A stretch of 64,000 nt of DNA from Escherichia coli (GCF_003334335.1 NZ_QOWQ01000008.1); one strand, 5' to 3'; positions 26,443 to 27,082 are shown, counted from the first letter of the stretch. Notes: generated by a model not told the origin, from the letters alone. Numbers and translations: made by a program.

Positions 26443-26598
26443 ATGGAAAAACTTACAACGGAACTACACTCCTTAAGTGAGATGGACCGAAGACATGTAG
26501 TCTCTATTTTAGCCGAAATAGCTAATGGCTATGATGATTTTAATGACATGTTGATTTATTTAGAATTTTACCCGAATCATAAGATTCTGATATCTTAA
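26443..26598 (+). CDS. yrhD: small ORF (51 aa), possible immunity-gene remnant
   Basis: ATG..TAA, MEKLTTELHSLSEMDRRHVVSILAEIANGYDDFNDMLIYLEFYPNHKILIS; below ORF-track length cutoff; symbol from memory of K-12 annotation. Confidence 0.4.
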   Translation: MEKLTTELHSLSEMDRRHVVSILAEIANGYDDFNDMLIYLEFYPNHKILIS

Positions 26599-26797
26599 AT
26601 AAGAAAATCCCGTTCGACGTTCTGAAAAAGAAATCATAAAATATTAGCAGATACTTATTTCGTGACTATATCTTATCCGATGAACTTTTTTCAAAACCAG
26701 CATTTAATAATATCTTTGACGAAGATGAACGCGTCTTTGCTCAATGTATCACACAGGAATAATAATATAACACTCAACAATAATATTTATTATAATT

Positions 26798-27082
26798 ATG
26801 ATTACTTATCACGACGCATTCGCGAAAGCGAACCATTACCTTGATGATGCAGATCTCCCGGTCGTCATTACTCTACATGGACGCTTTAGCCAGGGCTGGT
26901 ATTTCTGTTTCGAAGCACGAGAATTTCTCGAAACTGGAGATGAGGCCGCGCGCTTAGCTGGTAACGCACCTTTTATTATTGATAAAGACAGTGGTGAAAT
27001 TCATTCTCTGGGAACGGCAAAACCGCTGGAAGAATATCTACAGGATTACGAAATAAAAAAGGCTACCTTCGGCTTGCCCTGA
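26798..27082 (+). CDS. yrhB: small protein YrhB (94 aa)
   Basis: ORF track 94 aa; AT-rich islet; recognised as K-12 YrhB. Confidence 0.8.
   Translation: MITYHDAFAKANHYLDDADLPVVITLHGRFSQGWYFCFEAREFLETGDEAARLAGNAPFIIDKDSGEIHSLGTAKPLEEYLQDYEIKKATFGLP

Follow-up and report, generated by a model that had tools for sequence, protein, structure and literature searches.

Apparent Leftovers of Successive Toxin Replacement Downstream of the Hcp–HNH Effector Gene yhhZ at the yhhY–ggt Locus of Escherichia coli

Organization of the Locus

The window analysed here, a 64,000-nucleotide stretch of DNA from Escherichia coli (GCF_003334335.1 NZ_QOWQ01000008.1; positions are counted from its first letter), contains the yhhY–ggt locus of this species, in which the following genes and features can be distinguished.

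23954–24442: yhhY
24679–25857, + strand: yhhZ, Hcp–HNH toxin fusion of the Hcp-ET1 type (NCBIfam and PDB Hcp matches, identity profile)
24679–25383: part of yhhZ encoding residues 1–235, the conserved Hcp and linker; residues 236–392 are the swappable HNH toxin domain
25854–26348, + strand: yrhA, cognate immunity gene of the HNH toxin (ETI1 type), intact here (NCBIfam NF038335)
26341–26598, + strand: "yrhD-long", an apparent relic, 85-codon open frame without a start codon (tblastn, alignments, pN/pS)
26443–26598, + strand: annotated yrhD, 51 codons, the 3' 60% of this relic
26599–26762, + strand: psi-Cy85, putative decayed immunity gene (homology to an 85-aa gene of Citrobacter youngae)
26763–26797: true spacer, 11% GC
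26798–27082, + strand: yrhB, intact orphan immunity gene of the Imm35 family, 94 aa (Pfam PF15567)
27089–27112: GC-rich 10-bp hairpin between the convergent yrhB and ggt
27120–28889: ggt, convergent to yrhB

An earlier note on this DNA had pointed to a 51-codon ORF and to the 94-aa yrhB downstream of the toxin–immunity pair as possible orphan immunity genes, and both ORFs are indeed present (ATG to TAA, 51 codons, at 26443–26598; 94 codons at 26798–27082); the names yrhD and yrhB are those of the RefSeq annotation in thousands of E. coli genomes. Most of the block is found in 3758 of the 5426 complete E. coli genomes. The note had also placed yrhB in the same AT-rich block as the toxin pair, which the base composition contradicts, as the GC content amounts to 28–35% over 24443–26797, where the AT-rich block ends, versus 45.6% in yrhB and 54.9% in ggt. 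Of the extremely AT-rich spacers that it described, the one at 26763–26797 is genuine, whereas 26341–26442 appears to be the 5' part of the yrhD-long relic and 26599–26762 a decayed gene. No Shine–Dalgarno sequence was detected in front of yrhB or of yrhD.

The Hcp–HNH Effector and the Exchange of Its Toxin Domain

The N-terminal part of YhhZ (aa 1–147) matches the NCBIfam TssD/Hcp1 family and also Hcp entries of the PDB, while YrhA belongs to the NCBIfam NF038335 "YrhA family" (E 1.7e-35); yrhA likewise follows Hcp–HNH in C. youngae. When compared with the Hcp–Gln_amidase protein of E. fergusonii, YhhZ is 86% identical over aa 1–235 and unrelated beyond. An alignment of six Hcp fusions from Escherichia and Citrobacter reveals a mosaic, in which the N-terminal 210 columns track the species, with an identity of 0.9–1.0 within a genus, whereas the C-terminal parts track the toxin type (HNH, Gln_amidase, or the domain termed here toxin X), with an identity of 0.1–0.2 between types, and the switch point lies inside the conserved linker AEKLGGDA..GY.Q.LN.

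The same linker, together with HNH and a yrhA homologue, also occurs at a different locus in Lelliottia nimipressuralis (L025, 2800–3954), where the N-terminal region is not Hcp-like and the coding sequence of the toxin is broken up into two ORFs. The arrangement suggests that the linker–toxin–immunity cassette moves between carrier proteins. In Citrobacter, a conserved gene of 78–87 aa ("Cy87"), absent from E. coli, lies beside ggt whatever the cassette (L024, 4771–5034; L019, 6302–6553; L030, 5600–5836). It shows a weak EarA-like match (E 0.14) and no other family match, the Pfam and NCBIfam searches with the 87-aa product having returned nothing significant.

YrhB Belongs to the Imm35 Immunity Family

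YrhB matches the Pfam family Imm35 (PF15567) with an E value of 4.6e-23, residues 5–83 aligning with model positions 1–85 of 85. Zhang et al. (2012, PMC3482391) tie Imm35 specifically to Tox-PL1, a toxin of papain fold, and regard it as a likely peptidase inhibitor. The characters given for Imm35 in that work, namely a conserved Trp and Ser/Thr and an alpha+beta fold, are all found in YrhB: among 22 YrhB homologues, T25 and T73 never vary and W34 hardly does, and the AF2 model is alpha+beta with a pLDDT of 83. Neither YrhB nor YrhD has an NCBIfam match, and neither falls into an HNH-associated immunity family (SUKH/YrhA type), Imm35 being the only family that Pfam gives for YrhB. The comparison with immunity-family models proposed in the earlier note thus turned out positive for YrhB and negative for YrhD, which matches nothing in Pfam or NCBIfam.

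Homologues of YrhB with 57–83% identity are spread across Enterobacterales, and orthologues that are 66–83% identical sit 0–4 nt from the stop of Gln_amidase toxin genes. In Pectobacterium (L010–12) and Yersinia (L021–22), the orthologue overlaps the stop of a CdiA ending in a PF15644 Gln_amidase domain (Tox-PL1 family). In E. fergusonii (L017) and Citrobacter portucalensis (L019), it is located at the same yhhY–ggt locus and overlaps the stop of a 383–386-aa Hcp + Gln_amidase (Tox-PL1) protein, whose toxin domain in E. fergusonii bears the NC...H...DxQ signature. Such a toxin adjoins these orthologues but not the copy in the window, which is therefore an orphan; and, as a member of Imm35 whose orthologues directly partner Tox-PL1 toxins, yrhB can be classed as an orphan immunity gene, with a predicted specificity for Tox-PL1 and not for HNH. 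Since YhhZ shares the Hcp part with these proteins and then switches to HNH, yrhB would once have served a toxin domain that was exchanged in situ, and it was in place before the HNH pair rather than a later addition.

Imm35 genes also occur in larger assemblies. In Limnobaculum xujianqingii (L016, 2672–9744), a long same-strand array of small genes includes two Imm35 paralogues together with DUF596, DUF6896/MafI2, and DUF7336 genes and resembles an islet of several immunity genes without a toxin gene beside it.

Present in 4069 of 5426 complete E. coli genomes, yrhB looks constrained: its pN/pS is 0.12–0.14 against four diverged E. coli loci and 0.4–0.7 against two others (small counts, with 7–16 differences per comparison), and every invariant residue of the family is retained in the YrhB of the window, orphan and cognate copies being alike in this respect. 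DNA of the E. fergusonii-type Gln_amidase was found in none of the 5426 complete E. coli genomes in a DNA-level search, so the presumed threat would come from other species or from toxins diverged beyond the reach of such a search.

Several E. coli lineages carry a yrhB that is frameshifted after ..LAGNAP or, in one allele, interrupted by a nonsense codon (P0072, P0085, P0102, P0105; L009, 2950–3234), so the orphan gene is occasionally lost. Natural 112-aa variants of YrhB with an altered, extended C-terminus exist as well (P0021, P0023). The gene ends in CCC TGA (27077–27082), and yrhB has been named among the genes with elevated +1 frameshifting in the CCC TGA context (PMC2790909).

A Decayed Immunity Gene in DNA Annotated as Intergenic

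Downstream of the yrhD stop, frame 3 reads NKKIPFDVLKKKS, a stop codon, NISRYLFRDYILSDELFSKPAFNNIFDEDERVFAQCITQE, and a second stop codon. At the same locus of C. youngae, Hcp–HNH and yrhA are followed, 20 nt further on, by an intact 85-aa gene, here called Cy85, and the translation of 26599–26762 aligns without gaps to aa 2–54 of its product with 47% identity (pairwise E 3e-16; tblastn E 6e-11; score reached by 0 of 2000 shuffles). In the window, the ATG has been lost, an in-frame TAA lies at 26637–26639, and the gene is truncated after codon 54 of 85; this TAA of the present lineage is CAA in diverged lineages. The stretch is thus not an intact Cy85 ORF of ~85 aa and, judged by its similarity and its lesions, can be interpreted as a pseudogene of that family.

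The Cy85 family was found in Citrobacter species and in Budvicia. In three loci with two delivery types, Cy85 starts 1 nt after the stop of the toxin-X gene, domain X being carried by Hcp–X proteins in C. freundii and C. rodentium and by an Rhs fragment in Budvicia. Because it starts directly behind this stop, Cy85 may be considered the positional immunity partner of toxin X. Neither Pfam nor the PDB provides a match to toxin X, and searches of Pfam, NCBIfam, and PDB sequences with Cy85 gave nothing significant; toxin X and Cy85 thus appear to be a candidate toxin–immunity pair that is unannotated. The X/Cy85 loci (L030, 3746–5258; L028, 3791–5306; L026, 3977–5264) share in domain X the conserved sequence ..NQNYRAIAAGVEDLS..GDEFAMFT.GGRR..GWRWSSHVHPDG...

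The order of the genes in C. freundii, Hcp–X, Cy85, and Imm35, corresponds to that of psi-Cy85 and yrhB in E. coli. Moreover, strain ECGC74 has only yhhY–yrhB–ggt and yet, immediately ahead of yrhB, still bears the Cy85 3' end that is missing in the window (..GFVGYVALEKK), which implies that an intact Cy85–yrhB arrangement formerly existed in E. coli. The clearest immunity remnant in this region is 26599–26762, which is annotated as intergenic. The general expectation of the earlier note, that orphan immunity genes or their remnants lie downstream of the toxin pair, is borne out by yrhB and psi-Cy85, while yrhD matches no immunity family; the suggestion stands, since yrhB does have immunity-family similarity.

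The Annotated yrhD as the Tail of a Longer Relic

The reading frame of yrhD extends well beyond its annotated start. Frame 1 is open over 91 codons (26323–26598) in DNA where ~8% of the codons would be stops, the probability of 86 open codons being ~8e-4, and only 2.3% of the shuffles of 26349–26797 attain an open run at least as long as the observed 82 codons; the open frame exceeds what chance would give. The frame lacks ATG, GTG, and TTG before a GTG at 26434, the next start being the ATG at 26443, and the first codons of the relic overlap the yrhA stop. The 85-aa translation from 26341 retrieved by tblastn a Rahnella plasmid (42% identity, E 6e-5) and a Pantoea plasmid (E 9e-3), and it aligns end to end with proteins of ~80–84 aa from Pantoea, Rahnella, and Ralstonia. 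The full-length similarity to this family is thus present and the start codon is not, and the annotated start Met of yrhD lies inside the family proteins, four of the six aligned members having a Met there. Relatives of yrhD surfaced only once the upstream 34 codons were added: with the 51-aa YrhD itself, both a word-indexed search and an exhaustive one with phmmer against 1.84 billion representatives returned E. coli fragments only, and no Pfam or NCBIfam model, and hence no immunity family, was matched. As far as can be read from the alignments, 26341–26598 would be the start-less relic of a family of ~80–84 aa, of which yrhD is merely the tail.

The pattern of variation agrees with decay. 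In all six of the diverged E. coli loci fetched, yrhD either carries a premature stop (TAA in codon 23 or TAG in codon 39) or has its ATG changed to ATA, and RefSeq flags these six loci as pseudogenes; they were drawn from the bands below 99% identity, which comprise 1023 of the 3809 genomes with the region, the other 2786 genomes having it at 99% identity or above. The pN/pS is 1.1–1.5 for the relic, which evolves as neutral DNA, and 1.1–2.0 for yrhD, and a conserved ORF under purifying selection across lineages was not found. Although 68 identical members of yrhD have been recorded (PMC3575317), this invariance is explained by the youth of the clade and not by constraint. The 51-codon yrhD has most likely become a pseudogene. 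Upstream of it, a SELEX study lists a constitutive promoter (PMC3946193), and, as the 85-codon frame is unbroken in the main E. coli clade, the 51-aa tail may be expressed.

Three of the five yrhD-long homologues examined lie near polymorphic-toxin genes: the one in Pantoea dispersa is at the end of a CDI orphan array, that in Rahnella comes after a deaminase-like gene (recognized by eye from the sequence) and a small downstream gene, and that in Ralstonia MolK2 is beside CdiA/FhaC-type genes. None of those examined directly abuts a toxin gene, so this family can be called a candidate for orphan immunity by inference only. Searches with yrhD-long gave nothing significant in Pfam and nothing among PDB sequences.

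Other readings of this segment were tried and discarded. The variants P0001 and P0009 suggested that yrhD and the frame-3 stretch make up one frameshifted gene of ~105 codons; C. youngae shows the frame-3 stretch to be the start of a separate 85-aa gene, and the frame of yrhD extends upstream instead. That yrhD might be the 3' end of a displaced toxin was rejected, tblastn having found no similarity to the Gln_amidase domain or to toxin X, and its paralogy with Cy85 is not supported (shuffle p of 0.86 against psi-Cy85 and 0.035 against Cy85, and no DNA repeat).

Successive Replacement of Toxin Cassettes

The region downstream of Hcp–HNH/YrhA can be explained, with a probability of about 0.8, as the stacked leftovers of successive replacements of toxin cassettes at a single Hcp-effector locus between yhhY and ggt. 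According to this model, the Hcp part and the conserved linker remain in place, recombination at the linker exchanges the C-terminal toxin domain along with its immunity gene, and the immunity genes of displaced toxins persist downstream. Three leftovers could be recognized: yrhB, whose presumed cognate Gln_amidase/Tox-PL1 toxin is still borne by the orthologous Hcp of E. fergusonii and C. portucalensis; psi-Cy85, putatively the decayed immunity gene of toxin X; and the yrhD-long relic, from a family of small proteins that seems to be associated with toxin loci. The stack would imply the order Gln_amidase, then X, and then HNH. What has been shown comprises the homologies, synteny, mosaic breakpoints, and pattern of decay, and with them the exchange of cassettes at the Hcp linker and the retention of downstream immunity genes, two of the three in decayed form; on top of this, YrhB may be supposed to bind and block incoming Tox-PL1 toxins of other Enterobacterales delivered by T6SS–Hcp or CDI. 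Protection against the Tox-PL1/Gln_amidase toxins of neighbours is thereby predicted for yrhB from sequence comparison, a role that Kirchberger et al. (2017, PMC5361080) proposed for arrays of orphan immunity genes in Vibrio cholerae.

Different explanations have to be weighed against this model. A heat-stable, chaperone-like character has been ascribed to YrhB (Ahn et al. 2012, as cited in PMC10723866), which was also employed as a chaperone (PMC6598250), and the protein could be retained mainly for a housekeeping or stress role of this kind, its immunity ancestry being historical only. The purifying selection on yrhB, its presence in 75% of E. coli genomes, where a DNA search revealed no cognate toxin, and the solitary homologue of Enterobacter, which stands in a core-like context, would fit this view. 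It seems nevertheless unlikely, since all informative genomic contexts are toxin loci, orphan and cognate copies share the same invariant residues, yrhB is missing in ~25% of E. coli genomes, where unrelated cassettes are found instead, and loss-of-function alleles occur; besides, the ability of a small acidic protein to aid solubility is not specific evidence of a chaperone. Similarly, yrhD might be a functional 51-aa small protein of the K-12-like clade, a new gene derived from the relic, on account of its intact and invariant ORF in that clade (2786 genomes at 99% identity or above and the 68 identical members), its start Met shared with four of six aligned relatives, and its upstream constitutive promoter. 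This is improbable: invariance in a young clade is uninformative about selection, the six diverged loci fetched have all suffered nonsense mutation or loss of the start and pN/pS is at least 1, and the product would be a mere fragment of a domain of ~83 aa; neither a Shine–Dalgarno sequence nor homologues of its own length were found, nor, in the literature searched, evidence of its translation.

The arrangement of the genes allows two more readings. Under one of them, yhhZ, yrhA, yrhD, psi-Cy85, and yrhB would be a single horizontally acquired island in which yrhB travelled with the HNH pair, as might be supposed from genes that are co-oriented, a block that is missing in some E. coli, and a composition that is AT-rich up to 26797. 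The higher GC content of yrhB (45.6% versus 28–35%), strains of the ECGC74 type that have yrhB without the rest, the ~260 additional genomes with yrhB compared with the yrhD region, the yrhB of E. fergusonii and Citrobacter at the same locus with a different toxin, and an Hcp part that follows the species phylogeny make it a very unlikely history. The other, raised in the earlier note, would have yrhB and/or yrhD act as spare immunity against heterologous HNH toxins. Nothing besides their place behind an HNH toxin–immunity pair speaks for this extremely unlikely alternative, whereas the toxin-abutting homologues examined all pair with Gln_amidase/Tox-PL1 and never with HNH, Imm35 is specific for Tox-PL1 in the literature (PMC3482391), the HNH toxin is already served by YrhA, and yrhD has no immunity-family match.

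A broader proposal can be formulated tentatively, at somewhat less than even odds: E. coli, including K-12 and B, which lack a T6SS according to the literature, would keep yrhB under selection as a cross-species armour against papain-fold glutamine-deamidase toxins, either Hcp-borne (E. fergusonii, Citrobacter) or delivered by CDI (other Enterobacterales); the reported chaperone-like stability of YrhB would be a by-product of tight toxin binding; and X/Cy85 and yrhD-long would represent two toxin-associated families without a Pfam or NCBIfam model.

Relation to Known Systems and Implications

The closest parallel is provided by the T6SS orphan arrays of V. cholerae (Kirchberger et al. 2017, PMC5361080). 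There, a new effector–immunity module enters by recombination in the conserved upstream part and displaces the effector, and the previous immunity gene survives 3' of the module as an orphan that has cognate counterparts in other strains or species. At the locus described here, too, the 5' part of the effector is conserved and the recombination breakpoint precedes the variable toxin domain, and yrhB and psi-Cy85, both 3' of the active effector–immunity pair, have homologues elsewhere that are cognate immunity genes. Unlike in V. cholerae, the toxin domain is fused to Hcp itself and the locus stands apart from any T6SS cluster; of the three leftovers, two have decayed, and the comparison spans Escherichia and Citrobacter. 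Orphan cdiA-CT/cdiI and rhs-CT/rhsI modules are comparable too, as arrays of displaced modules hold homologues of YrhB, Cy85, and yrhD-long (Pectobacterium, Budvicia, Pantoea); such modules usually retain toxin-CT fragments, whereas no toxin fragment is detectable in the window.

Within the Hcp-ET family (Ma et al. 2017, as relayed by PMC6099711 and PMC6730261), which includes the HNH-DNase Hcp-ET1 with ETI1 and the papain-like peptidase Hcp-ET5 with ETi5, YhhZ/YrhA would be of the Hcp-ET1/ETI1 type and the Hcp–Gln_amidase + Imm35 pairs of E. fergusonii and C. portucalensis would fit the "papain-like peptidase" clan, whereas toxin X is outside the five published clans as these reviews give them. 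With the Imm35/Tox-PL1 pairs (PMC3482391; PF15567, PF15644), yrhB has in common the full-length HMM match, the conserved Trp, and orthologues beside Tox-PL1 toxins, and it differs from them in having no partner toxin in the window. The assignment of yrhB to Imm35 in Pfam and, as far as the reviews convey it, the Hcp-ET1/ETI1 and Hcp-ET5/ETi5 pairs (Ma et al. 2017) are already documented; the history of the locus, psi-Cy85, yrhD as a start-less fragment, and the X/Cy85 pair are apparently not documented in the literature searched. Altogether, the locus is a new example of a known process, the sequential displacement of effectors.

As regards the annotation of K-12, yrhB could be redefined as an Imm35 orphan whose target toxin can be named and tested, no longer just as the gene of a heat-stable protein, and yrhD as a pseudogene fragment, probably not to be counted among the small proteins, while a likely relic of an immunity gene is hidden in DNA annotated as intergenic. 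The yhhY–ggt locus of Escherichia and Citrobacter offers a compact natural series (Gln_amidase, X, and HNH), useful for studying the swapping of toxin domains at a conserved linker and the retention versus loss of old immunity genes, and toxin X with Cy85 is a possible new toxin–immunity pair.

Further Elements and Variation at the Site

The hairpin at 27089–27112 scored as a terminator on the – strand, i.e., on the ggt side, and may terminate both yrhB and ggt. Over 24400–27200, Rfam gave merely sub-threshold matches to eukaryotic snoRNAs, the repeats consisted of short AT-rich chance pairs, and promoter-like sites were not more frequent than in shuffles. The yrhA of the window is intact, whereas that of K-12 derivatives (MG1655-type, DH5alpha) is interrupted by IS1, as also reported in PMC12428005, and one further strain has an IS5 in the locus. 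The contig CABHOW010000200.1 (L023) bears the label "MAG: uncultured Flavihumibacter sp." and matches the yrhA/yrhD region of E. coli at 100% identity; it probably comes from E. coli through misbinning or contamination. Some E. coli genomes, such as that of strain 2013C-4465 (L004, 3391–4668), carry another cassette between yhhY and ggt, made up of a frameshifted DUF4225 gene and a hypothetical gene on the opposite strand, and are devoid of yhhZ, yrhA, yrhD, and yrhB; the yhhY–ggt site is a variable hotspot.
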